NCBI RefSeq assembly: GCF_016097555.1
Contig: NW_024532772.1
Location: forward strand, 67,754 to 131,753
Source of the DNA: Gigantopelta aegis
Lineage: Eukaryota
Length of the DNA stretch: 64,000 bases
Direction of reading: 5' to 3'
Shown: piece by piece, positions 151 to 61,734 of the stretch
How positions within the stretch are numbered: the stretch's first letter is position 1
How the letters are laid out: the number at the start of each line of letters is the position of its first letter
Notes under the pieces: generated by a model
What the model was told of the DNA's origin: nothing
What the model saw: the letters and a program-made list of their open reading frames with translations, nothing else
The model's database searches: none
Program-made: the position numbers and the translations under genes

Positions 151-289
151 TAAGAGAGCATGTACTAATGTTGTAACTAACATAGTGAACAAGAACATTC
201 CATTAGACAAAAATTTGTTCATACATGTGTGTACATACATTGTATGACACATCCCTTCCTTTCTTATATTAATATGAATTGACATTCAT

Positions 290-470
290 CCATCACTCTA
301 TCTATTTATACATTCATCAATTGATATCTCCATCCATCCATTCATCTATTCATCTACCCATCCATTCATCTATCCAGTAACCCATCCACCCATTCATCTA
401 CTCATCCATACATCCTGCATCTAATTCATCCATCTGTCCATCCATCCATCCAGTTATAGATACATCCCAT
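290..470. repeat. degenerate CATC/CATT (TGGA-like) satellite
   Basis: catccatccattcatctattcatctacccatcc repeated. The same motif recurs at 2560-2620, 3110-3130, 24200-24240, 44640-44660, 57870-57940, 58440-58510, 59940-59960 and 61200-61290. Confidence 0.7.
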
Positions 471-724
471 TAAAATTATGACCACAATAATAAATTTATT
501 AATTACTTTGAAATATTATAACATATCATAGCCAACTATCTCATACAATTGCTTAATAATGTGGTTTTGTAAGTTATGCAACTTTTCTGTAAACTACTAT
601 TAACCAACTAGTAAAAGCAACAAATAACTGACATTAGTAGCATAACAGCCATATTTACCAGTAGTTTAGATTGGTAATATAAATGTTGTTACAGATAAAA
701 ATAAGATTATTGAGATTAGATAAG

Positions 725-1200
725 GTCTAAACTAGTGAACATCAGTACTTATCACAGTGATCTAGGATAGCTACCATTAGTAATCTCTAGACTAGTGAAC
801 ATCAGTACTTACCACAGTGACCTAGGATAGCTACCATTAGTCAGCTCTAGACTAGTGAACATTAGTACTTTTACAGTGACCTAGGATAGCTACCATTAGT
901 AAGTTCTAGACTAGTGAACATCAGTATTTACCACAGTGACCTAGGATAGCTACCATTAGTCAGCTCTAGACTAGTGAACATTAGTATTTACCAGTGACCT
1001 AGGATAGCTACCATTAGTAAGTTCTAGACTAGTGAACATCAGTACTTACCACAGTGACCTAGGATAGCTACCATTAGTAAGCTCTAGACTAGTGAACATC
1101 AGTACTTACCACAGTGACCTAGGATAGCTAAGCTCTAGGCTAGTGAACATCAGTACTCACCAGTGACCTAGGATAGCTACCACTAGTAAGCTCTAGACAT
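725..1200 (+). repeat. tandem array of a ~60-bp unit (about 8 copies)
   Basis: The unit tagactagtgaacatcagtacttaccacagtgacctaggatagctaccattagtaagctc repeats head-to-tail. Confidence 0.9.
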
Positions 1201-1518
1201 TCACATTAGCAATTGTCCTATTAATGAACTATGAACTGGTGATATCACAACTAAACAAGTCACAATTTATGTAGTAAAGTTGCCACTTCATCATAAACCA
1301 GTTATTATATGGATACTGGAGGAATGTGTATTTACTGTATTACTTACTTTTGGGAAATAATTACCTGCTATATTAAAAAACAATAATATTATGTTATTAT
1401 TAGTTAATTCTATCTGTAGGATATATTATTATTAGAACTAGGACATTGTACTATCAATACTAAATTAGAACTGAATTATTACTCTAAACAATGTAGCCTA
1501 ATGGTAATTATGTGGTAA

Positions 1519-2075
1519 GTAGTGATGTTGACTAGTCTAGAGCTTACTAATGGTAGCTATCCTAGGTCACTGTGGTAAGTACTGATGTTCACTAGTCTAG
1601 AGCTTATTAATGGTAGCTATCCTAGATCACTGTGATAAGTACTGATGTTCATTAGTCTAGAGCTTACAAATGGTAGCTATCCTAGGTCACTGTGATAAGT
1701 ACTGATGTTCACTAGTCTAGAGCTTACTAATGGTAGCTATCCTAGATCACTGTGATAAGTACTGATGTTCACTAGTCTGGAGCACTGTGGTAAGTACTGA
1801 TGTTCACTAGTATAGAGCTTACTAATGGTAGCTATCTTAGGTCACTGTAGTAAGTACTGATGTTTACTAGTCTAGAGCTTACTAATGGTAGCTATCCTAC
1901 TGACGTTCACTAATCTAGAGCTTACTAATGGTAGCTATCTTAGGTCACTGTGGAAAGTAGTGATGTTCACTAGTCTAGAGCTTACTAATGATAGCTATCC
2001 TAGGTCACTGTAGTAAGTAGTGATGTTTATTAGTCTAGTCCAGAACTTACTAATAGTAGCTATCCTAAGTCAGAA
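1519..2075 (-). repeat. the same 60-bp unit in inverted orientation (about 9 copies)
   Basis: tagtctagagcttactaatggtagctatcctaggtcactgtggtaagtactgatgttcac is the exact reverse complement of the 725-1200 unit. Confidence 0.9.
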
Positions 2076-4075
2076 CCGATTGTTCATCTTATTAGTACTA
2101 TAATAGTTTTAATAATTAGATCATAAAAGTGACCACAACAAAAATCAGTCATTACCATATATGGTATAGTGCTTAAGATGTTATAGTGACAAATATTCTT
2201 AGTGATATATTCAATTTAATCCACCCTCACTATAGAAGAGTTATTAGATTACACATCTTCACATATCATCAAACCATATACCACCTATAACCTTTAATGG
2301 TAATACTTGTCTAGTTTACAGAGTATATCAATTGACCATCTGTTACATAAACAGGAGGATATATGGTCTATTAAAGGAGATATATATATATATACATCAT
2401 GTTTGTTGTCTCTACGTTAATTCATCCAATTATCAATATGTTAGAATTTGTCCATTGTCACAACATTATATTAAAAACAATTTCAATACAAATAGAATGT
2501 TAGTAAATTATGAATGGATGGACAGAGAAATTCAAATAAAATGATGAACAAAATTGATGTGTGGGTATTAAAATGGACAGACAGGATGGATGGATAAGTG
2601 GATAGACAAGCACACAAATGACAAGGGGATAAAACAGTAGATTCAAGAACACTACATATAGACCACATCATATTTACCACCTGCTACCTAACTCCACAAA
2701 ATCCCAAATGCACAATATAATAAAATTATATCACTTTATGTAGATATACATAACATATGTACATGTACATGGTATTAAGTGTTAATGCTACACTAGATGA
2801 CACATTGAGAGAACAGAAATAATTTAAACAGATGTGATCACATCAGCAGATAAACAGGAATAACTAACTAATTAATACACGTGGACTAATATGTACATTT
2901 AATTAAAGGAACAATATTAATTACATGTGTACCTTCAAATATTTTGGCAGTAATTGCGTAATAAAGTCTGTAAGCCTCCACACTCATTACGTAATATCAC
3001 AAGAAGATCTCGATCAATCAGGTCAGGTATTTCACAAAGATGTAATTTTCCTTTAAAAAAAAATTAAAATAAATTATTAGTTATAAAAACTGAGGGCATT
3101 ATCAGACTGTCATCTATCCATCCATCCATCCTCCCCCACTAAACTATTAAAACTATTAAACAAAATTATTCATTACAACACACACATACACACACACCAT
3201 AAAAGTGCTTTAGCAAAATCAATTTTTTGGCCAATGGAATGTACTCATTTGTAGTTCTTCTCAATAAAATGTACTACAATAACTGACATTAGTGTGCCAA
3301 AGAATGATCATTTCATGTTCAATACCATAAATATCTACTACATATAAAATGTACATATATCTTTTAATGGCTGAATAACTCCAAGAGTATGGCATGCATG
3401 TTGTATGTAGTGTGATTTTAACCATCAAAGGATCGAAGTTAATATTTGTTCTGAATAAATGACAATTATGTAATGGACAGTTGAACACTACAAATTAAAG
3501 ATGTCCATATTTAAAATAATTTAGCTGTTTTTTGATTTATAAGACTATATTATGTCACTATTATAATTAGTTGGCAGACCTAAGCAGTGTCAATTGGGGG
3601 TTAAAAACAGAATACAAGTCTGTTTTTAAAGCCAATGGACTCTCTAGGGAGATATTAATAAATACTATTATTGATTAATGTCTATATATAACATTGTGAA
3701 CTACACTGATGTAGTTCTAACTACATGTAACTATGGTGTATAAATTGTTTCAAATTAAAGGAGCATTGATTACTACCAAATTGAGAGCATGAAATAGCTT
3801 TGTAGGAGATTACAAAGTTAATGTATACAATTTGTGTACCTCCTCTGTTCCATAGTTTTACTTCTGTCTTGTCTTGTGATAGCTCTATCCATCTTGGTGG
3901 TCCTTCTAATAATGCCTTGGTAACTATGGTAATGATGTCCAATTGGACAGATCGATCCACTTGAGAACAATTTTTGACTACTTCTGTGGTAGGTCGAGGT
4001 TTGAAATGTTCAGCCCAAGGTTTAGGTAAAGTGGTGTCATCAGTCTTAGACTTTACCTCCTTAGGGAGTTGATTA

Positions 4076-4828
4076 CTAGGGGTTGTCCTCATTAGATAGG
4101 TGATTACTATGGGTTGTCTCATTAGATAGTTGATTACTATGGGTTGTCTCATTAGATAGTTGATTACTATGGGCTATCTCATTAAATAGTTGATTACTAG
4201 GGGCTGTCTCATTAAATAGCTGATTACTATGGGCTGTCTCATCAAATAGCTGATTACCATGGGCTGTCTCATCAAATAGCTGATTACTAGGTGTTATCTC
4301 ATCAGGTAGCTGATTAGTAGGGGTTGCCTCATTAGATAGTTGATTACTAGGTGTTATCTCATCAGGTAGCTGATTACCAAGGGTTCTCTCATCAGACAGT
4401 TGACTACTAGGTGTTATTTCATCAGGTAGATGATTAGTAGGGGTTGCCTCATTAAATGGCTGATTACTAGGTGTTATCTCATCAGGTAGCTGATTAGTAG
4501 GGGTTGCCTCATTAGATAGTTGATTACTAGGTATTATCTCATCAGGTAACTGATTACCAAGGGCTCTCTCATCAGACAGTTGACTACTAGGTGTTATTTC
4601 ATCAGGTAGATGATTAGTAGGGGTTGCCTCATTAGATAGTTGACTACTAGGTGTTGCAAGTAGTTGATTATAAGGTTCTTGGTTATCACATTTATCATTA
4701 GGTAGCTGATTACAATAGTTCACTTCATTTGGTTTCTCGCAAACAAACTGTTTACCACATCTACTATTGATAAATGCTTCTCTCTCTTCATCAATTCTCA
4801 GCTCGTCTTCAGGAGAATAATTTCTCAT
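4076..4828 (-). CDS. exon encoding a Ser/Thr/Pro-rich protein with about 10 copies of a 20-aa repeat (NQLPDEITPSNQLSNEATPT)
   Basis: 250-aa ORF over a 60-bp tandem DNA repeat. An acceptor-like ttttcag lies just upstream (minus strand) with a GTAAGT donor beyond it. Confidence 0.35.
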   Translation of the reverse strand: MRNYSPEDELRIDEEREAFINSRCGKQFVCEKPNEVNYCNQLPNDKCDNQEPYNQLLATPSSQLSNEATPTNHLPDEITPSSQLSDERALGNQLPDEIIPSNQLSNEATPTNQLPDEITPSNQPFNEATPTNHLPDEITPSSQLSDERTLGNQLPDEITPSNQLSNEATPTNQLPDEITPSNQLFDETAHGNQLFDETAHSNQLFNETAPSNQLFNEIAHSNQLSNETTHSNQLSNETTHSNHLSNEDNP

Positions 4829-4894
4829 CAGTCCAATCTGGCATACCTGAAAAAGAGAAGAAATACAACTTGCCTAAACAGATATAAACTTACT

Positions 4895-5002
4895 CTCTTA
4901 CTGGATGGTATTCTTAATGTGTCTTCCTCTACATGAAATCCCATCACATGACCAATTTCCCGTACATAATCTAGATAGCAACGATACTGACTTTGTGATG
5001 AT
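4895..5002 (-). CDS. possible upstream exon with a zinc-metalloprotease-like motif (YVREIGHVMGFHVEED)
   Basis: Minus-strand translation RTTSSQSQYRCYLDYVREIGHVMGFHVEEDTLRIPSSKR. It is flanked by the acceptor ttatctagttcag and the donor GTAAGT. Confidence 0.25.
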
Positions 5003-5029
5003 GTAGTCCGACTGAACTAGATAAAAATA

Positions 5030-5285
5030 ATCATTGTGGTAAATACTAGTATAGAGCTTATTAATGATAGGTCACTGTGGTAAGTACTGAAGTTTACTAG
5101 TCTAGAGCTTATTAATGATAGGTCACTGTGGTAAGTACTGAAGTTTACTAGTCTAGAGCTTACTAATAATAGGTCACTGTGGTAATTACTGATGTTTATC
5201 AATAGTCTAGAGTTTACTAACGGTAGTTATCCTAGGTTATTATGGTAAGTACTGATGTTCACTGATGTTCATTAGATTCTACTAA
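5030..5285 (-). repeat. dispersed partial copy of the same repeat family (3-4 units, 12-bp deletion variant)
   Basis: tagtctagagcttattaatgataggtcactgtggtaagtactgaagtttac repeated. ORF 5017-5202 is a translation of this repeat. Confidence 0.85.
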
Positions 5286-5534
5286 TGGAAGGAGCTAACT
5301 ACAATAAACATTATGTCATTGTTAAGACTACCACATAAAGTATGTAAGAAGAGCTTGTACACAATTACAAGTGTAACTTAATCCCAACCTTTTTATCAAA
5401 GTCATAAGCACAACATGGTAGAAACAAAATATCTTGTTTTATACGATGACCTAATGATATAACCATATATGGCATAATATGAGATTGTGTATTGTGTACA
5501 TAAAATAACTGAATGAAATTAATTATTAATTTCC

Positions 5535-8126: not shown

Positions 8127-8858
8127 ATGGACAAAATGATATTGACTTTCATACTAATACTTTCCATTGGAGCAGTGCTTTGTGACAAACCTGACTACAA
8201 AGATGACATCATTGACACACCAATCTTCAATGTCACTAACTCTGAAGCTAAGAAACCCAATCCAGTACCAGAAGACAAACATCAGACCCAACCCACAAAA
8301 CAACCCCTTCCAGAATATTACAACCCTCCTTTTGATCCTGAGAACCCATCAGAACCATTATTTACAAAGTCAGGGGCTCGTCTTATAACAATCAATGAAC
8401 TATCCGCACATGGTAGTGTTAATGGTACCTTACGTCCAATATGGCTGGCAGTAATGGGGCGTGTCTACGATGTAGAAAAAAGGCTATGATAGCCATTATG
8501 GTCCAAAAGGAGGATACAATTTTTTCACTGGACGTGACGGATCAAAAGCTTTTGTTACTGGAAAATTTGATGATGAAGGCCTCACAGACGATGTCTCAGA
8601 ATTAACACCTATACAACTCAAAGATATTGAGGACTGGATACACTTTTATGACAAGGACTACACATATGTTGGTAAACTTATAGGACGTTACTATGACAAA
8701 ACAGGAAACCCTACCAAAGAATTGTACAAATATCAGAGGAATCTGGCTAAAGCTGAAGAGATCAAAGCAGAGCAGCAAGCCCAAGAAAAGCAGTTCCCTC
8801 CTTGTAATTCCCGTTACACACCTGCTGAAGGAGGATTAGTCTACTGTTCTACAAATAG
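8127..8858 (+). CDS. CYB5D2: neuferricin / cytochrome b5 domain-containing protein 2 homolog, exon 1 (signal peptide + cyt-b5-like heme domain). Carries a 1-nt frameshift in an A6 run at 8476-8481
   Basis: MDKMILTFILILSIGAVLC signal peptide, then ...LRPIWLAVMGRVYDVEK / GYDSHYGPKGGYNFFTGRDGSKAFVTGKFDDEGLTDDVSELTPIQLKDIEDWIHFYDKDYTYVGKLIGRYY. The family motif reads only if one A is removed from the run. GT donor at 8859. Confidence 0.75.
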
Positions 8859-11266: not shown

Positions 11267-12508
11267 ATGGCTACGGAAGAAACTTCGGATACAGAAAGAG
11301 ATGGGCATTCTTCGTCCAAGTATAAGAATACTTCAGAAAACAAAAAGAAAGTAGCAGCGAAACAGGACAGAGACTGCCTTTGTGGTATGAAAGTTGTCAT
11401 TACTGGAGGCTGTGGTTTTCTGGGCCTCCATCTTGCTCGACTGCTTTACCAAAAGGTTCAAGACATTCATATAATGTTGTTTGATAAGAGTCCTGCTGAT
11501 GAAGCTGCCATGAATTTTATTACTAATGGAGTACCTAATGGAGATCGTGTCAGTTATGGTGGAAGACACAATGACATTATGATTCTAGAACATCTCAATG
11601 CAGCTTTTCAAGATGCTGATGTTGTCTTCCATTGTGCTGCAATAACATCCTCGTGTGCTAAAATAGATTTCAATAAAAAAATGCAGAGAGTCAATGTAGA
11701 AGGCACAGCAAATGTTGTCAAAGCTTGTCAGAGACAAGGTGTACGAGCACTAGTCTTCACTGGTGACTTAGCTCAGGTTTTAAGATCTGGACTTCATGTA
11801 CAAGAGGGTATCACTGAAGATGTCATAGTTCGTGATCATGAGGAATTAGTAATGGATCATTTTGGACGTTCAAAGACTGAAGCAGAGAGGAAAATCCTCC
11901 AAGCAAATGGGTTCAAGACAACCTTATACACGTGTTCAATACGTTGTCCTCCTTTATATGGAGAAAATGATACCACATTCTTACCAAATGCTTTCTGGGC
12001 TGCTGAAAAGTTCTACAAATATTTTCCTTTAATTGGGCATCCTTCTGTGAAAATGACTGCTATGTATGTGGAAAATGCAGCCTGGGGTCATATATGTGCA
12101 GCAAAGAAGCTCCTGGATGAAAATGCCAGACTTAGAGTTGGTGGTCAGTTTTATTATGTTACAGATGACACTCCTTCTGAAAGCTACAGTGATTTCTTTA
12201 AGCGATTTCTTAGCTCTCTTGGTTATAGGACTTTACCTATTCGTCTTCCTGTCCTCCTTCTTACATGTTTTACTTACTTAATGGTTGTCTTGATTGTATT
12301 CTTAGTGGCTGTCTTTCAATATAAAAGTCTGGGTCGTGCTTTAAACTATCGTCGTCAACTTAAAATGCTATCTACCAGTCATACTGTTTCAAGAGAAAAG
12401 GCAAGGATTGAGTTGGACTATGAGCCTCATGTTCCATTTGATGAGGCATTCAAACAGTCTTCTCGATGGTATCTTTTTAACATTGGAATGCTTCTAACTA
12501 GAATATGA
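11267..12508 (+). CDS. intronless 3beta-hydroxysteroid dehydrogenase/isomerase-family (extended SDR, NAD(P)-binding) protein with C-terminal transmembrane helices
   Basis: VVITGGCGFLGLHLARLLY Rossmann motif, DVVFHCAAITS, and hydrophobic LPIRLPVLLLTCFTYLMVVLIVFLVAVF. The GTG-started ORF at 11258 actually begins at ATG 11267. Confidence 0.75.
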   Translation: MATEETSDTERDGHSSSKYKNTSENKKKVAAKQDRDCLCGMKVVITGGCGFLGLHLARLLYQKVQDIHIMLFDKSPADEAAMNFITNGVPNGDRVSYGGRHNDIMILEHLNAAFQDADVVFHCAAITSSCAKIDFNKKMQRVNVEGTANVVKACQRQGVRALVFTGDLAQVLRSGLHVQEGITEDVIVRDHEELVMDHFGRSKTEAERKILQANGFKTTLYTCSIRCPPLYGENDTTFLPNAFWAAEKFYKYFPLIGHPSVKMTAMYVENAAWGHICAAKKLLDENARLRVGGQFYYVTDDTPSESYSDFFKRFLSSLGYRTLPIRLPVLLLTCFTYLMVVLIVFLVAVFQYKSLGRALNYRRQLKMLSTSHTVSREKARIELDYEPHVPFDEAFKQSSRWYLFNIGMLLTRI

Positions 12509-18888: not shown

Positions 18889-21800
18889 GAGGCGAAATGA
18901 TGCAAAGACCGCAAGGAATGAGGGAAAGGAATCGTGTGAACCATAATGTCCCGGTAGATCCTACAGGCCTAGGATATTCCAGCTGTCCACCTGGAATGCG
19001 TCTAATGCATCCACCAGTACATTATGAACAACCTGCTGGTATGCGTATGGTAAACCAACCTACTCCTCAGCTGACAATGCACAATATGACACAGCAACAG
19101 GAACAACAGGAATGTCAATATCCACGGCAACCAGATAGATGGCAACCACAATCAGGTAGATTTATAATTCTTTTACTCAATCACTGATTTTGTCAGTTCA
19201 TACACTTTTGTAATAACAATAATTTATAACAACACAGTTTCAAATCCATATATTGAAAGTCTCATACAAGCATTAGTCTCACACACATATACTTTAAAAG
19301 TATTGTACCCTACCTTAAAAATCTAATGTGTACCTCCTCAGCCATACATTAATAGTCTCATACTAATACATATATACAGGAAGTGAAATGATACAAAACC
19401 CACAAGAAATGACAGAAAGGGATCATGTGGACCAGAATATTCATGTAGCTCCTACAGGATATTCCAACTGTCCAACTGGAATGCATTTAATGCATCCACC
19501 AGTACATTATGAACAACCTCCTGGTGTGCGTATGGTAAACCAACCTACTCCTCAGCTGACAATGCACAATATGACACAGCAACAGGAACAACAGGATGTC
19601 AATATCCACGGCAACCAGATAGATGGCAACCACAATCAGGTAGATTTATAATTCTTTTACTCAATCACTGATTTTGTCAGTTCATACACTTTTGTAATAA
19701 CAATCATTTATAACAACACAGTTTCAAATCCATATATTGAAAGTCTCATACAAGCAGTAGTCTCACACACATATACTTTAAAAGTCTTGTACCCTACCTT
19801 AAAAATCTAATGTGTACCTCCTCAGCCATACATTAATAGTCTCATACTAATACATATATACAGGAAGTGAAATGATACAAAACCCACAAGAAATGACAGA
19901 AAGGGATCATGTGGACCAGAATATTCATGTAGCTCCTACAGGATATTCCAACTGTCCAACTGGAATGCATTTAATGCATCCACCAGTACATTATGAACAA
20001 CCTGCTGGTATGCGTATGGTAAACCAACCTACTCCTCAGCTGACAATGCACAATATGACACAGCAACAGGAACAACAGGAATGTCAATATCCACGGCAAC
20101 CAGATAGATGGCAACCACAATTAGGTAGATTTATAATTCTTTTACTCAATCACTGATTTTGTCAGTTCATACACTTTTGTAATAACAATAATTTATAACA
20201 ACACAGTTTCAAATCCATATATTGAAAGTCTCATACAAGCATTAGTCTCACACACATATACTTTAAAAGTATTGTACCCTACCTTAAAAATCTAATGTGT
20301 ACCTCCTCAGCCATACATTAATAGTCTCATACTAATACATATATACAGGAAGTGAAATGATACAAAACCCACAAGAAATGACAGAAAGGGATCATGTGGA
20401 CCAGAATATTCATGTAGCTCCTACAGGATATTCCAACTGTCCAACTGGAATGCATTTAATGCATCCACCAGTACATTATGAACAACCTCCTGGTGTGCGT
20501 ATGGTAAACCAACCTACTCCTCAGCTGACAATGCACAATATGACACAGCAACAGGAACAACAGGAATGTCAATATCCACGGCAACCAGATAGATGGCAAC
20601 CACAATCAGGTAGATTTATAATTCTTTTACTCAATCACTGATTTTGTCAGTTCATACACTTTTGTAATAACAATCATTTATAACAACACAGTTTCAAATC
20701 CATATATTGAAAGTCTCATACAAGCAGTAGTCTCACACACATATACTTTAAAAGTCTTGTACCCTACCTTAAAAATCTAATGTGTACCTCCTCAGCCATA
20801 CATTAATAGTCTCATACTAATACATATATACAGGAAGTGAAATGATACAAAAACCCACAAGAAATGACAGAAAGGGATCATGTGGACCAGAATATTCATG
20901 TAGCTCCTACAGGATATTCCAACTGTCCAACTGGAATGCATTTAATGCATCCACCAGTACATTATGAACAACCTCCTGGTGTGCGTATGGTAAACCAACC
21001 TACTCCTCAGCTGACAATGCACAATATGACACAGCAACAGGAACAACAGGAATGTCAATATCCACGGCAACCAGATAGATGGCAACCACAATCAGGTAGA
21101 TTTATAATTCTTTTACTCAATCACTGATTTTGTCAGTTCATACACTTTTGTAATAACAATAATTTATAACAACACAGTTTCAAATCCATATATTGAAAGT
21201 CTCATACAAGCAGTAGTCTCACACACATATACTTTAAAAGTCTTGTACCCTACCTTAAAAATCTAATGTGTACCTCCTCAGCCATACATTAATAGTCTCA
21301 TACTAATACATATATACAGGAAGTGAAATGATACAAAACCCACAAGAAATGACAGAAAGGGATCATGTGGACCAGAATATTCATGTAGCTCCTACAGGAT
21401 ATTCCAACTGTCCAACTGGAATGCATTTAATGCATCCACCAGTACATTATGAACAACCTCCTGGTGTGCGTATGGTAAACCAACCTACTCCTCAGCTGAC
21501 AATGCACAATATGACACAGCAACAGGAACAACAGGAATGTCAATATCCACGGCAACCAGATAGATGGCAACCACAATCAGGTAGATTTATAATTCTTTTA
21601 CTCAATCACTGATTTTGTCAGTTCATACACTTTTGTAATAACAATAATTTATAACAACACAGTTTCAAATCCATATATTGAAAGTCTCATACAAGCAGTA
21701 GTCTCACACACATATACTTTAAAAGTCTTGTACCCTACTTAAAAATCTAATGTGTACCTCCTCAGCCATACATTAATAGTCTCATACTAATACATATATA

Positions 21801-23016
21801 CAGGAAGTGAAATGATACAAAACCCACAAGAAATGACAGAAAGGGATCATGTGGACCAGAATATTCAGCTCCTACAGGATATTCCAACTGTCCAACTGGA
21901 ATGCATTTAATGCATCCACCAGTACATTATGAACAACCTGCTGGTATGCGTATGGTAAACCAACCTACTCCTCAGCTGACAATGCACAATATGACACAGC
22001 AACAGGAACAACAGGAATGTCAATATCACGGCAACCAGATAGATGGCAACCACAATCAGGTAGATTTATAATTCTTTACTCAATCACTGATTTTGTCAGT
22101 TCATACACTTTTATTTATAACAACACAGTTTCAAATCCAGTCTCATACAAGCATTAGTCTCACACACATATACTTTAAAAGTATTGTACCCTACCTTAAA
22201 AATCTAATGTGTACCTCCTCAGCCATATATTAAAGTCTCATACTAATACATATATACAGGAAGTGAATAACTGGTATGCAACCACCTATGATACAAAACC
22301 CACAAGAAATGACAGAAAGGGATCATGTGGACCAGAATATTCATGTAGCTCCTACAGGATATTCCAACTGTCCAACTGGAATGCATTTAATGCATCCACC
22401 AGTACATTATGAACAACCTCCTGGTGTGCGTATGGTAAACCAACCTACTCCTCAGCTGACAATGCACAATATGACACAGCAACAGGAACAACAGGAATGT
22501 CAATATCCACGGCAACCAGATAGATGGCAACCACAATCAGGTAGATTTATAATTCTTTTACTCAATCACTGATTTTGTCAGTTCATACACTTTTGTAATA
22601 ACAATCATTTATAACAACACAGTTTCAAATCCATATATTGAAAGTCTCATACAAGCAGTAGTCTCACACACATATACTTTAAAAGTCTTGTACCCTACCT
22701 TAAAAATCTAATGTGTACCTCCTCAGCCATACATTAATAGTCTCATACTAATACATATATACAGGAAGTGAAATGATACAAAACCCACAAGAAATGACAG
22801 AAAGGGATCATGTGGACCCAGTAGCTCCTACAGGATATTCCAGCTGTCCACCTGGAATGTGTCTAATGCATCCACCAGTACATTATGAACAATCTCCTGG
22901 TATGCGTATGGTAAACCAACCTACTCCTCAGCTGACAATGCACAATATGACACAGCAACAGGAACAACAGGAATGTCAATATCCATGGCAACCAGATAGA
23001 TGGCGACCACAATCAG
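18889..23016 (+). CDS. MED15: array of 10 tandemly duplicated symmetric exons (261 bp, phase 1-1) spaced about 485 bp apart, each encoding an 87-aa M/H/P/Q-rich module
   Basis: For example exon 20349-20609 lies between acceptor atatacag and donor GTAGAT. It encodes (G)SEMIQNPQEMTERDHVDQNIHVAPTGYSNCPTGMHLMHPPVHYEQPPGVRMVNQPTPQLTMHNMTQQQEQQECQYPRQPDRWQPQS. Units begin near 18889, 19380, 19864, 20349, 20835, 21320, 21805, 22280, 22765. Units 21805 and 22765 carry small deletions. Confidence 0.7.
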
Positions 23017-23187
23017 GTAGATTTATAATTCTTTTACTCAATCATTGTATTTTTGTATGATAAAAATACAAACAAGCCTTAGTTTTATACCCATACAGTA
23101 AACGTTTCATACCCATGCATTGAAGTCTCATAGTCATTAATTAAAACTTTGATTCTTGTGTACACAGGAGGTGAAATGATGCAAAGG

Positions 23188-24340
23188 TCACGAGGAATGA
23201 AGGAAGGGAATTATGTGAACCATAGTATGCCAAGAGGTGTACGTCAACCAGATCCAACAGGATATCCCAGGTTTCAACCAGTAATGGATCTAATGCAGCC
23301 ACCAGCACATTATGGACCACATTCTGGTATGGGTATGCCAAGAATGATAAACCAACCTACTCCTCGGCCTGCATTGTATAACATGCCACAGTCAGGAGGC
23401 TCTGTGATGCAAAGACATCCACATATGGGAAGTCACCCTAGAATGGTTCGTCCACCTATGAACCCTCCTCCATTCATGACAAGGGGAATGCAACTAGGAA
23501 CAACTGTAATGCAGCTTTCTGGAGAACATTGTCAAATGATGACTCATCCTTATACTAGTGTAGTCAGCTCTTTACATCATCCTCCAAGTCATTTGCCAGT
23601 GGTGTCTCACTTTCTCTCTGAAACCCCTTCGACATTCTTTTCCAAAATGTTTCAAACACCGCAAAGACCCATTAGTGGTCCTCGATCATCTGTATCTCAT
23701 CTAGTTATTCAAGACAAATCAAAATCACTCCTCATAAACGAAATCTACACTCTCAATGTGATAAACTAAGCAAAAGACCAATTAATCCTCTCCTATCTTT
23801 ACCATTATCATCAGCTTCATTAGTGAATTCTGAAACTGTTATTGTATCTCCAAATGATTCATCTGGTTTTGTTTATAATAGTGTAGATGTGCCAATATCA
23901 TCAGAGCATCAATATGAAAGAAAGAAATCCATTGAAGAGGAACAGAAAAATGGCAGAAAATCACCAAAACAAGTGAAAACAAAAGAACCTCCTGACATAG
24001 CGCAATGTAAGATCACATCTAGTGCTTTTAAAAATGTTTCTTCTTTGGTGGTGGTATCATCAGATCATGAACATAATGTAATGACTACTCAAGAATCATT
24101 AGTTAGGCAGGGTCATCTATATTTTAAAGACCGTTCAAGGAAGCAATCAAATGAAATTGCATGTTGTAGTGATACAATCAATCAACAGTCATGGAAGGAG
24201 GGATGGGCTGATGGGTGGATGAATGGATGGATGGATGCATCAAAAGGTCTACCTCTGAATCCTGAAATACCGTTCAATTATAAAAATTTACCTCCAGAGC
24301 TAACAAGACCATCATCACTACCAAATTTTCAATTAACTAT
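23188..24340 (+). CDS. MED15: downstream M/P/H/Q-rich low-complexity exons of locus 1
   Basis: GGEMMQRSRGMKEG...MMQRHPHMGSHPRMVRPPMNPPPFMTRGMQLG... Paralogous to 27741-28195 and 34568-35158. Confidence 0.45.
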
Positions 24341-52715: not shown

Positions 52716-54380
52716 TGAACCTTTAACTATCTTTTTTAAATCGATCTATCTTAAAGTATGACAGATCATAAGATGGTGGTAACTCCAGAGTTAATTCAGT
52801 GAGTATCTTGCCTACAACTGGACCTAATTTAAAACCATGTCCTGTAATTAAAGGGTTAAAATTAACTGTCCAGTTTGACCGTTATTTTACCTGAAAATCC
52901 AGCTCCTATAATATATTAGGATGGTTTGGGTGTCTGTCCAAGAATGGGTTTTTTGTCTGACTATAGAACATAGAAATTAAATTAACTCCTTCCTATACAC
53001 ATATTCTCACTGTCATTGTGTACATGCAGAATTCCATTATAGCAGGTTCACTAGAAACCACACCCTTAAAATGATCTTTAACAAATTGTGACGTAATCTT
53101 AAAAGAGTAGCTGTCAGGACTGGCATCACGACTATCAGGATCAACGTCAGGACCATGATGTAGACAAACCTAATATAATATAACTATATGATATTAATAT
53201 TCATTAAAATGTCATATTATAGGCTCAATCCCATACTCCATATTATGTACAATACCATAGGCTCAATCTCATACTCCAAATTATGTACAATACCATAGGC
53301 TCAATCCCATATTCCATATTATGTACAAAACCATAGGCTCAATCCCATACTCCATATTATGTACAATACCATAGGCTCAATCCCATACTCCATATTATGT
53401 ACAATACCATAGGCAATCCCATATTCCATATTATGTACAATACCATAGGCTCAATTCATACTCCATATTATGTACAATACATAGGCTCAATCCCATACTC
53501 CATATTATGTACAATACCATAGGCTCAATCTCATACTCCAAATTATGTACAATACCATAGGCTCAATCCCATATTCCATATTATGTACAAAACCATAGGC
53601 TCAATCCCATACTCCATATTATGTACAATACCATAGGCTCAATCCCATATTCCATATTATGTACAATACATAGGCTCAATCCCATACTCCATATTATGTA
53701 CAATACCATAGGCTCAATCCCATACTCTATATTATGTACAATACCATAGGCTCAATCCCATACTCCATATTATGTACAATACCATAGGCTCAATCCCATA
53801 CTCTATATTATGTACAATACCATAGGCTCAATCCCATACTCCATATTATGTACAATACCATAGGCTCAATCCCATACTCTATATTATGTCCCATACAATT
53901 CCATACTCCACAACACACTCATTATTTCATATTACAATAATACCATAGTCTGCTCTAGTTACGCCATACTACAATCCTCAGGCTCATTCCCATTATTCCA
54001 TACCTTTAAAAGCCCAGGATACTCATATATAGGAAGACCATAAAATTCAGTCTTGTTGATAGACTTGCAAATAAAAGTTGGAAACTCATTGGCAGAGAAG
54101 ATCTTTGGATCCTCAGTTTGCCAATATAGAACTTCTGTTCTTATTGGCTATTGGAGACATACTGTTAGTACGAATGTATGTATATCGTTGTTACCTGAAG
54201 TGGTAATGTTAATCCAGTGAGTGTTGTTAATTTATTAGTCCATGCTCCAGCTGTTAAGATTAGTCTCTTAGTTTTAAAGTTGTTACCTCTCTCAGTTTGA
54301 ACAGTGATAATATCTCCTGGAATTATATCAGTAACTTTATGATTGTCTAATAGTTGACCTCCATGTTGAATAAAAAGATC

Positions 54381-57492: not shown

Positions 57493-59400
57493 ATGGCTGT
57501 TAGTGATAAATTAGGTTTTGTTATGTATGATGTTATTATTATTGGTGCTGGTATAGAAGGTAGTGCTGCTGCTTACTACCTTACATCAAAATCCAACAAG
57601 AAAGTTCTTCTTTTGGAGCAAGTGAGCTATCTCTCTCTCATATATTTCCATCTATATTGTTTTCAGTTTGAGGTACTACACACTCGTGGTAGTTCTCATG
57701 GAGCCTCTAGGATAACGTCGATTAGCTTACAATGAAGCTATTTATGTTAATATTATGAAGGAGGCTTACCAGTTATGGGAGGAGATAGAAAAGAAATCAC
57801 AACGTCAAACTTTACTGGTACATCTCATTGTACATGATGTCTTTATTGTAACTAGTCATATTCATCTATTCATCCATCTGTCCATTATACACATGTCTAT
57901 TTGTCCATTTACCAACCATCCATCCATCCAACCATCCTTTATATGGTTTCTTCAAATAGGAAGACAGGAATATTGGCTCTAGGCAAAGCTACTGACTCTT
58001 CAATAGACTTATATCATAATTCCTTAGATTTGAATGGAGTACCGCACATAAAGTCCTTACTGGGAGAGAAGCCAAGAAACTCTATTCTTGTCAACTGAGT
58101 ATTCCTGATGATAACAGGTGTATTTTTGAACCAAATGGAGGTGTATTAAAAGCCTCCAAGGCTTTGAGAACTTTACAGGTATTTAAGGATATTACACATA
58201 TTTATTTTGACAATCATAATTTATAATTATTATTTTTATTATAATACAGGAGTTGTTTCTACAACAAGGGGGTTGTCTCCTTGACAACCATCAGGTCACC
58301 AAGTTAATTCCTGGAGCAGTTGTTTACCGCTGTGACTGATAAAGGTAGTTTTCAAGCATGGAATGTGATCTTAACAACTGGTGCTTGGACAAACAGGATA
58401 CTGAATCAACTGGACTAACATTACAATGAAAGTATGGGAGAAGAACACTAACATTCTGTCTATTTATCCATCCATCCATATATCTATCTGTCCATCCATC
58501 CATGTATCTATTTACTTATGACATATAGAGCTGAAGTTCTTTTATTTTAAAGTTGATGAACCAGATGCTTTCTCAGCTGACAATTTCCCTGTCTTTCTAA
58601 ACTGCACATCCACCTGTTACTAATGTACCATCTATATATGGGACACCAATATTGGAAATATCCTGGACTACTAAAAGTAAGGTCATCACATGTAAAGTAT
58701 CTTTTTTATTTGTTATGGTTTACATGTAAAGTATCTGTTTACTTGTTATGTTTACAGGTAAAGTATATCAATTGTTTACTTGTTATTTTACATGTAAAGT
58801 ATCTTTTTTACTTGTTATGTTTACACGTAAAGTATCTTGTTTACTTGTTTGTTTACACATAAAGTATCTTGTTTACTTGTCACATGTCATCTATTCTTGT
58901 AGCAAACACATGTTCTGTTATTAAAAATTAATGATATACTTTCTCAGGTTTGTCAGTTTTTTGGAGATGACAAAGAGATTGATCCTGAGACCAGAGATTC
59001 CATTCCTCAGAGTTTGACTCTTGAACGAATTAAAGAATTCATCAAGAATCATTTCAAAGGAGTGAGCACTGAACCTGCTATTTTTGAGCTATGTCTCTAT
59101 GCAGATACTGTGAGTTGGTCTCATTCTATTTTCAGATTTTTGTTCAAGATTTCCATTCTCATATTTCCGTTCATGTATCTTTTTCTTCTTTATAGCCAGA
59201 TAACAATCCCTACATTGACAGACATCCTAAATATTCAAATATCATCGTAGGAGCAGGATTTTCTCATGGTTTTAAGATGGCTCCTGTTATCGGCAAGTTA
59301 TTAAGTGAACTGGTACTGAATTTGTTACCATCTTATGACCTGACACCTTTTAAGGTTGACCGCTTACAAGACCCCCAAGGCAGGATTGTGAGAAATTTTA
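57493..59400 (+). CDS. PIPOX: PIPOX-like copy C on the opposite strand, about 7 exons, with several frame breaks
   Basis: [43 protein letters not shown] (57493-57623). [17 protein letters not shown] / [31 protein letters not shown]. ..[44 protein letters not shown].. ..[91 protein letters not shown]. Confidence 0.65.
58690..58900. repeat. ~31-bp minisatellite x6 in an intron of copy C
   Basis: ttacatgtaaagtatcttgtttacttgttatg repeated. ORF 58623-58862 is its translation. Confidence 0.85.
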
Positions 59401-61080: not shown

Positions 61081-61734
61081 TAGTGAAAAATTACACAAAG
61101 AGATTTAATTTAAATAATAATTACTCACTCTTACTTAAAGATATCTGATATAATATTGAGATCTTTCTAAGTTATTGAACATCTGTCATCCTTAAAAAGA
61201 AATATTAGTTCAGCTGGTCCATCCATTTTTTCAATTAATCTATCCATCCATTAACTCATCATCCATTAATCTATCCATGCCATCAATCATTCATCCATTT
61301 TCACTCACTAGATACCAATCTGCAAACCTAATATTTAACCCTATCTACACACGCGCGTGGTAGAATAATTAACTCCTAGTATGTGCAGTTGACTGAAGGG
61401 TCAAGAAAATTTAATAAATTTTCCCCAAATCACACACACACACATGATAGGAACTTAATAAGGTAATATTTAATTATAAAAAATTATCAAAATTATTATA
61501 AATGATTATTACAGATGACGGTGGTTGCCAAAGGTAAGGATTGAATTACAACATTCAAATTTAACAATCATATAGAAACTAACTATTGACAGTTACTTTT
61601 AAGAACTGGTCTCAGTCTCCTTAACATCGGAACCAGTCTCTTTATCACTTGATTTAGTCTCAGACATAGTGACTCAGACTCACTGCAAGAAGGCACAGAC
61701 TCATCTCTTCATCACCAAGCTTAGCTTTAGGACA

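Follow-up and report, generated by a model that had tools for sequence, protein, structure and literature searches.

The foldback near the start of the window (i.e. the whole 64-kb stretch of DNA that was analysed) probably belongs to a lineage-specific, non-coding 60-bp minisatellite that forms four short intronic arrays in two neighbouring, co-oriented genes; two of these arrays are adjacent and opposed, and together they make up the foldback, which measures 1.36 kb as a whole. The best-supported description of its behaviour is that of an old, neutrally drifting minisatellite without demonstrable Foldback transposon character. Lineages diverged by 1%, 4% and ∼15% have the arrays at orthologous sites, where whole units have been gained or lost. 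Typical minisatellite traits are present, i.e. head-to-tail units of 10–100 bp, degenerate edges, unit-number polymorphism at a fixed locus, and a non-coding sequence without constraint above the neutral rate.

Anatomy of the arrays

An earlier note, made from the letters of this DNA alone, had described long inverted arms of a 60-bp tandem repeat at positions 720–2075, with about eight units in arm 1, about nine in arm 2 and an AT-rich core of ∼320 bp between them. This description holds in all its parts, with the refined borders, unit counts and core length given in Table 1; for the unit counts, each array was divided at a fixed anchor of the unit. With Tandem Repeats Finder, 715–1198 shows a period of 60 bp (8.3 copies, 87% matches), and 1511–2072 is covered by several 60-bp rows that overlap. 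Between the two arms, a repeat finder lists 117 inverted pairs, the longest of which covers 150 nt with 94% complementarity (e.g. 721–870 with 1517–1666). The spacer between the arms is 26.2% GC, compared with 38–40% in the arms and 34.8% in the window; it is free of repeats, and none of its open reading frames (ORFs) exceeds 30 aa.

Table 1. Coordinates of the repeat arrays and of the neighbouring exons and introns (window numbering; negative positions lie to the left of the window)
Feature	Position	Strand or orientation	Description
Arm 1	715–1198	−	8 units of the 60-bp repeat, reverse orientation
Spacer (core)	1199–1496	no strand	298 bp, unique, 26% GC
Arm 2	1497–2072	+	9–10 units, forward orientation
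Third array	5030–5300	+	Three 51-bp units and two degenerate units
Fourth array	∼−2990 to −2610, outside the window	as arm 2	∼Six units
TRM44-type gene, start of last exon	1–107	−	VHGG…, CCCH-type finger; runs past the window start
TRM44-type gene, probable last intron	108–2934	−	∼2.83 kb; would hold the whole foldback
TRM44-type gene, penultimate coding exon	2935–3050	−	…LRNECGGLQTLLRNYCQIFE; 56% identity to L013 (tblastn)
TRM44-type gene, probable 375-nt intron	5013–5387	−	Between the exon ending ...LPCCAYDFDKK and exon 4895–5012

When three mismatches or fewer are tolerated, a 40-nt unit core matches six times on the − strand (757–1093) and seven times on the + strand (1531–2008), where 100 dinucleotide-preserving shuffles give an expectation of 0. 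With a 29-nt core, the window contains 18 matches against 0 expected. Beyond the two arms and the third array, neither scan found a further copy of the 60-bp unit in the 64-kb window.

The two arms differ in their internal make-up. Units of arm 1 are 60, 59 or 58 bp long, with one 51-bp variant adjoining the spacer, and show a partial 119-bp higher-order alternation (TAAGTT and TCAGCT variants) that is absent from arm 2. Arm 2 starts with a degenerate unit (at ∼1497), includes two truncated units (35 and 43 bp) and ends with another degenerate unit; degenerate edges are a general property of the arrays. Since these variants and the 119-bp pattern are found in arm 1 and not in arm 2, the arms have not been homogenized against each other and evolve independently by tandem gain and loss.

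The shorter variant array that the earlier note had placed at 5030–5285 is also real. It extends to ∼5300 and is oriented like arm 2; its three 51-bp units are variants with a deletion of 9 bp, and two further units are degenerate. The fourth array came to light when the locus was extended leftwards in L011/L012, and L009 contains it too, at its end; one unit of this array is of the truncated 43-bp type known from arm 2. The proposal that the family is dispersed is borne out only locally: all four arrays lie within ∼8.3 kb, but the other ∼62 kb read (i.e. window positions 5300–64000, and −6280 to −2990) contains none. For the ∼70 kb surveyed, random placement would bring four arrays this close with a probability of (8.3/70)^3, i.e. 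∼0.002.

Composition and origin of the repeat unit

The consensus of the 60-bp unit is ACTAGTCTAGAGCTTACTAATGGTAGCTATCCTAGGTCACTGTGGTAAGTACTGATGTTC. Stop codons occur in all six reading frames, and the ORFs of the arms and of the interval between them reach 42 aa at most. The unit is rich in 6-bp palindromes (five, i.e. ACTAGT, TCTAGA, TAGCTA, CCTAGG and AGTACT; P = 0.004), and CTAG appears three times in it (P = 0.001). By analogy with the subrepeats in the terminal inverted repeats (TIRs) of Galileo, this richness could reflect protein-binding sites. Splice-like motifs are present in each unit (GTAAGT and TACTAAT on one strand, GTAAGC on the other). An internal 30-bp periodicity of the unit is not significant (P = 0.59).

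Two possible origins of the unit were rejected. Derivation from the 30/60-nt coding repeat of exon 3842–4848 has the best local alignment at a score of 15, compared with 13.6 ± 2.3 for shuffled sequences, and 562 of 2000 shuffles equal the observed score. A tRNA, SINE or other known RNA origin finds neither a tRNA gene (ARAGORN) nor an Rfam match, whether at the gathering threshold or at E ≤ 1. The unit has no match in JGI metagenome contigs (two patterns), GTDB genomes or IMG/VR, which says little because these collections probably do not hold this host. A protein-database query with two array-derived ORFs and parts of the neighbouring protein returned relatives of the neighbour only, the known arrays themselves being without a called ORF. 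A paralogue match (P0005), from a different sample and species, is also without the unit.

Host genes and intron positions

The window is AT-rich eukaryotic DNA (34.8% GC) with split genes. On its − strand, open frames joined by good splice junctions make up a TRM44-type methyltransferase gene, and the joined exons match Pfam PF07757 (8.5e-24). The foldback would lie entirely inside the last intron of this gene, given a phase-matched junction and a distant sponge locus (L013) that has the same exons in the same order. The donor after exon 2935–3050 reads ...CQIFE G/gtacac and the acceptor at ∼107 reads ...ctcctacag/TTCATGG (the slash marks the splice site), and the phase fits across the junction (G + TT = Val). 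The last exon is 70% identical to its counterpart in L013.

In the probable 375-nt intron of this gene, the third array accounts for ∼72% of the length and ends ∼17 nt from the 3' splice site. The fourth array lies between exons of a neighbouring two-RRM gene, which is on the same strand as the TRM44-type gene.

Orthologous loci and unit-number variation

Two genes of the window, a single-exon 3-beta-HSD gene and a gene for neuferricin (Cyt-b5), led to metagenome contigs of this locus in ENA. Among named relatives, the neuferricin matches that of Ephydatia muelleri best (43%); this, together with sample names that point to sponge holobiont metagenomes, makes a sponge the probable host. Two HiFi contigs of ERZ21830300 (metaMDBG-style; ctg717434l of 2.2 Mb and ctg715763l of 217 kb) share ∼98–99% identity with the window and behave like a pair of haplotypes. 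The corresponding haplotype sequences (L005/L012 and L011) contain the complete foldback with borders and spacer identical to those of the window. A short-read scaffold from another sample (L009) has the same structure with ∼4% substitutions relative to the window. A more diverged sequence (L003, ∼15%) begins inside arm 2, shares its outer junction and carries the third array.

These sequences bear directly on whether the foldback could be an assembly artefact (such as a collapsed repeat or a chimeric palindromic read); the earlier note had named an artefact of the latter kind as an outcome that would overturn its description. Compared with the HiFi contigs, the window has single-base insertions in two of its coding exons, so its consensus is imperfect, and this would fit an artefact. 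However, the same arms, spacer and borders are present in two independent HiFi haplotype contigs and in the short-read scaffold from another sample, which excludes an artefact; we regard this explanation as virtually impossible.

Unit numbers vary among the sequences. Arm 1 has 8 units in the window, 7 in L005/L012, 7 in L011 and 5 in L009. Arm 2 has 9 (9–10) units in the window, 9 in L011 (with the same length), 10 in L005/L012 and 8 in L009, so that the two haplotype contigs of one sample differ (9 vs 10). At the site of the third array there are ∼5 units in the window, 3 in L008 and 8 full 60-bp units in L003. Marker units (e.g. the truncated unit ...CCTA/CTGACGTTCAC and the terminal unit ...GTCCAGAAC) follow each other in the same order in the window, L005 and L009. 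Copy number changes mostly where arm 2 faces the spacer and around the centre of arm 1. None of the four related sequences that reach the site represents an empty allele.

The distant sponge locus has a neuferricin 68% identical to that of the window and, by tblastn, TRM44 exons in the same order. Its exons flanking the intron of the foldback are ∼724 bp apart, and its intron matching 5013–5387 is ∼424 bp long. Neither of these two introns contains the 60-bp unit or any other tandem repeat. This suggests that the repeat was gained in pre-existing introns on the lineage of the window species.

Divergence and folding potential

At the level of substitutions, the window and L009 are 96.3% identical in the left flank, 96.2% in the spacer and 96.0% in the right flank; the outer units of arm 2 that are orthologous one for one are 95.9% identical. 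The spacer is 99.7% identical in L005. Because the outer units of arm 2 diverge as the flanks and the spacer do, there is no extra constraint on the arms, and nothing indicates selection on either the arms or the spacer.

The snap-back potential proposed in the earlier note is confirmed by predicted folds. As RNA, the − strand of 700–2100 folds into one long hairpin (−804.9 kcal/mol) with a stem of ∼480 bp, and the inner 681 nt as DNA have a folding energy of −175.9 kcal/mol (z = −22.8 vs shuffles). The third array could likewise pair with arm 1, over 95 nt with 86% complementarity (repeat finder), and the two bracket three exons. As passive effects, a double-stranded stem of ∼480 bp could be expected in TRM44 pre-mRNA and in single-stranded DNA, with some risk of rearrangement, which would be lessened by the 298-bp spacer.

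Alternatively, the arrays might act as a functional RNA element: the intronic hairpin of arms 1 and 2, together with pairing between arm 1 and the third array, would provide double-stranded RNA (dsRNA) in TRM44 pre-mRNA, which could feed Dicer or ADAR or modulate skipping or circularization of exons 5012–2935. Consistent with this, the hairpin forms on the strand of the pre-mRNA sense, the complementary arrays bracket exons, each unit carries the consensus-like splice motifs listed above, and the arrangement is kept in lineages up to ∼15% diverged (in L003, the outer end of arm 2 and the third array). However, the arms diverge at the neutral rate of their flanks and spacer, unit numbers drift freely, the repeat is absent from both introns in the distant sponge, and Rfam has no match. 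Drift at the neutral rate is still compatible with a structural function, given that redundancy may preserve pairing as the arms drift. We consider this explanation very improbable.

Drosophila hairpin RNA (hpRNA) loci give rise to endo-siRNA, and pairs of intronic Alu elements mediate exon circularization. Like these loci and back-splicing repeats, the present arrays form a long, near-perfect inverted repeat in a presumably transcribed region (some of the known cases also having arms of tandem units), with complementary copies in different introns. They show no sequence constraint above the neutral rate, in which they differ.

Comparison with Foldback transposons

The earlier note had offered two labels for the structure, a Foldback transposon or a hairpin-forming satellite. 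The satellite label fits, whereas the Foldback label lacks target-site duplications, common termini and coding capacity. The literature considered here (Dias et al. 2014, PMC4079207; Marzo et al. 2013, PMC3688188; Gross & Williamson 2011, PMC3169594) covers Drosophila FB, Tetris of D. virilis, Galileo and Tm1. In the scheme of Dias et al. (2014), the middle domain of a Foldback element is followed by tandem repeats, which form the outer domain, and by a terminal flanking domain free of repeats, and the element has 8–10-bp target-site duplications. Inverted arms of tandem subrepeats and a non-coding middle domain are present here as in that scheme. The known elements are also alike in their long arms of unequal length, variable unit number and short middle domain, and Tetris repeats occur as separate arrays too (TIR-220).

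The remaining features of the scheme are lacking. All plausible pairs of borders were scanned for direct repeats of 7–10 bp with one mismatch allowed, and no convincing target-site duplication was found at the borders where the earlier note had suggested looking for one. The only candidate is one 7-mer with a mismatch, and random placements give a mean of 8.3. An old target-site duplication could have decayed. Non-repetitive termini shared by the two sides are also absent: the inverted similarity stops inside the arrays, and only an 8-mer is common outside them. The outer ends are out of register, with position 724 pairing with 2041 and arm 2 extending ∼30 bp further out. In addition, the known elements differ from the present arrays in that these show no insertion polymorphism among the four relatives and form a local cluster only, within the ∼70 kb surveyed.

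Comparison of the 300-bp flanks of the four arrays reveals nothing in common beyond noise. This excludes segmental duplication together with the flanks and suggests that the arrays moved as bare arrays. When read in the orientation of the unit, the four arrays begin at roughly the same phase (to within ∼20 bp), and they also end at roughly the same phase. These shared phases hint, if weakly, that a whole array module with defined ends may have been copied.

The features of the preceding paragraph count against the minisatellite reading, because arrays with a common unit and no common flanks form a discrete module, as a mobile element would, and because the start and end phases fit a module with defined ends; the richness of the unit in palindromes and CTAG weighs against it as well. 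They favour instead a decayed, non-autonomous Foldback-type transposon, or two mobile tandem-repeat insertions placed head to head, that would pre-date the split of the lineages. The other arrays would then be solo arms or copies from local hops, and a transposase encoded elsewhere would bind sites in the subrepeats. The architecture of inverted subrepeat arms around a non-coding middle domain (PMC4079207), the clustering within 8.3 kb (compatible with local hopping) and the absence of the repeat from the same introns of the distant sponge are in line with such an origin.

Several findings argue in the other direction. The sole target-site duplication candidate is below the chance expectation, there is no non-repetitive terminal domain and the outer ends are out of register, coding capacity is missing (the longest ORF being 42 aa), none of the four relatives covering the site has an empty allele, and no further copy exists in ∼62 kb of neighbouring sequence. 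The unit is also without a match in JGI metagenomes, GTDB and IMG/VR, collections that probably do not include the host. Taken together, we consider a Foldback-type origin unlikely. Autonomous Foldback copies encode a MULE/FB4-like transposase, or a P-like one as in Galileo. To our knowledge, Foldback-type elements have not been described in sponges.

A miniature inverted-repeat transposable element (MITE) is a short element (under ∼800 bp) with defined TIRs and a target-site duplication. MITEs resemble the foldback in being non-coding, bounded by inverted repeats and intronic. This candidate was rejected, as the present element differs in its length of 1.36 kb, in its arms made of tandem arrays, and in the absence of both a target-site duplication and defined termini.

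Spread of the arrays and comparison with intronic satellites

If the arrays are a minisatellite, they could have spread in the following way. An ancestral array would have been copied over a short distance as a 'naked' array, probably either by template switching during replication or repair, or by re-insertion of a circular repeat intermediate. One copy may have landed, or may have become inverted, head to head beside another array. Afterwards each array would have followed its own course by unequal exchange or slippage. No function would be needed for the arrays to persist, and they could be maintained passively.

Both routes have been put forward for similar Drosophila arrays (Sproul et al. 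2020, PMC7403614). The movement of short euchromatic satellite arrays is proposed to involve microhomology-mediated repair, interlocus conversion and re-insertion of eccDNA (PMC7403614, PMC11610590).

A related alternative is a mobile 'naked satellite' module that would colonize introns in this sponge lineage, either as a non-autonomous, Foldback-like element with a transposase that binds its palindrome-rich subrepeats, or by propagation through circles. Its inverted and antisense copies in TRM44 introns would give rise to dsRNA that the host uses or has to manage; this combination we judge quite improbable. The dsRNA might then be turned into siRNA, undergo A-to-I editing, or help to control whether exons are skipped or circularized.

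The structure is best filed as an inverted cluster of intronic minisatellites or short satellites, i.e. a known kind; the Foldback label is unproven, two defining features of that class being absent. It represents a well-documented foldback-shaped minisatellite that is stable in an intron across relatives and polymorphic between them at the level of units. As such, it can serve as a marker and illustrates how tandem arrays move without their flanks, but it changes no concept. Its importance would be greater if the family were genome-wide and driven by a transposase, or if the intronic double-stranded RNA were processed.

[quoted passage not shown] 2020, PMC7403614) and the satellites in gene-rich regions of Tribolium (PMC11610590). 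Here, the four arrays are confined to ∼8 kb (of ∼70 kb surveyed) and two of them stand head to head, in which they differ from these euchromatic satellites. Both groups share short, single-unit arrays close to genes or in introns, with unlike flanks, and they also have in common expansion and contraction by unequal exchange within a locus and the presence of higher-order units.

Distribution and composition of the 60-bp unit

Besides the two foldback arms and the third array, a fourth array of ∼6 units of the 60-bp repeat lies outside the window on L012, a haplotype contig from an independent HiFi metagenome assembly. One of its units is of the 43-bp truncated type also present in arm 2 of the foldback. 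The second haplotype contig (L011) carries this array too, and so does the terminal part of L009, a short-read scaffold diverged by ∼4%. The array is intronic and belongs to a Musashi/hnRNP-like gene with two RRMs that adjoins the TRM44 gene.

Five 6-bp palindromes lie in the unit consensus of the arrays at window 715-2072 and 5030-5300, namely ACTAGT, TCTAGA, TAGCTA, CCTAGG and AGTACT (P = 0.004 in comparison with shuffled sequences), and CTAG occurs three times (P = 0.001). Splice-like motifs are also present in the unit, with GTAAGT and TACTAAT on one strand and GTAAGC on the other.

Coordinates of repeats and neighbouring genes
Feature	Sequence	Position	Strand	Remarks
Fourth array, 60-bp unit	L012	17436-17818	+ (of locus)	roughly -2990 to -2610 in window coordinates, outside window
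In-frame 30/60-nt coding repeat	window	4063-4656	- (coding)	inside TRM44 exon 3842-4848
3-beta-HSD/NAD-epimerase genes, single-exon, tandemly duplicated	window	11267-12508 and downstream		
	L001	13570-14787		
	L003	13580-14893, 17296-18513		
Ankyrin-repeat gene, 705 aa	L013	7787-9904		between TRM44 and neuferricin genes of distant sponge
485-bp tandem repeat	window	18971-23053		8.5 copies, 95% identity
38-bp tandem repeat	window	53219-53896		18 copies, 93% identity
CCAT/CATC-rich low-complexity stretches	window	287-478, 3110-3135, 58459-58511, 61234-61299		

TRM44 coding repeat and single-base insertions in two genes

The large TRM44 exon carries a tandem repeat of its own, which encodes decapeptides of the NQLPDEITPS type and has no significant similarity to the intronic 60-bp unit. 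Its copy number differs among relatives, with called products of 229, 259, 269, 299 and 368 aa, and the region appears to be missing from the distant sponge locus L013. Relative to HiFi contig L005, this exon shows no mismatch over 1128 bp apart from a single additional C in the window at 4087, and the window's neuferricin gene has an additional A at 8476. Each insertion disrupts its reading frame and is therefore either a genuine frameshift allele or an error in the consensus of the window's assembly.

Neighbouring genes and other repeats

The window lacks the ankyrin-repeat gene at the position corresponding to that in L013, while synteny between the two is otherwise retained (TRM44, neuferricin and 3-beta-HSD). 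Two 3-beta-HSD/NAD-epimerase copies are present in the haplotype contigs versus three in L003, a relative diverged by ∼15% from the window. Small Death-domain-like ORFs alternate with these gene copies.

Further along the window, the 485-bp repeat seems to code for a series of repeated modules rich in Pro, Met and Gln, which run on into an ORF at 23149-23769, and this region may be a gene made of tandem exon-intron modules. The 38-bp repeat is unrelated to the 60-bp unit. The CCAT/CATC-rich stretches are derivatives of a TCCA-type microsatellite that recur across introns and intergenic DNA.
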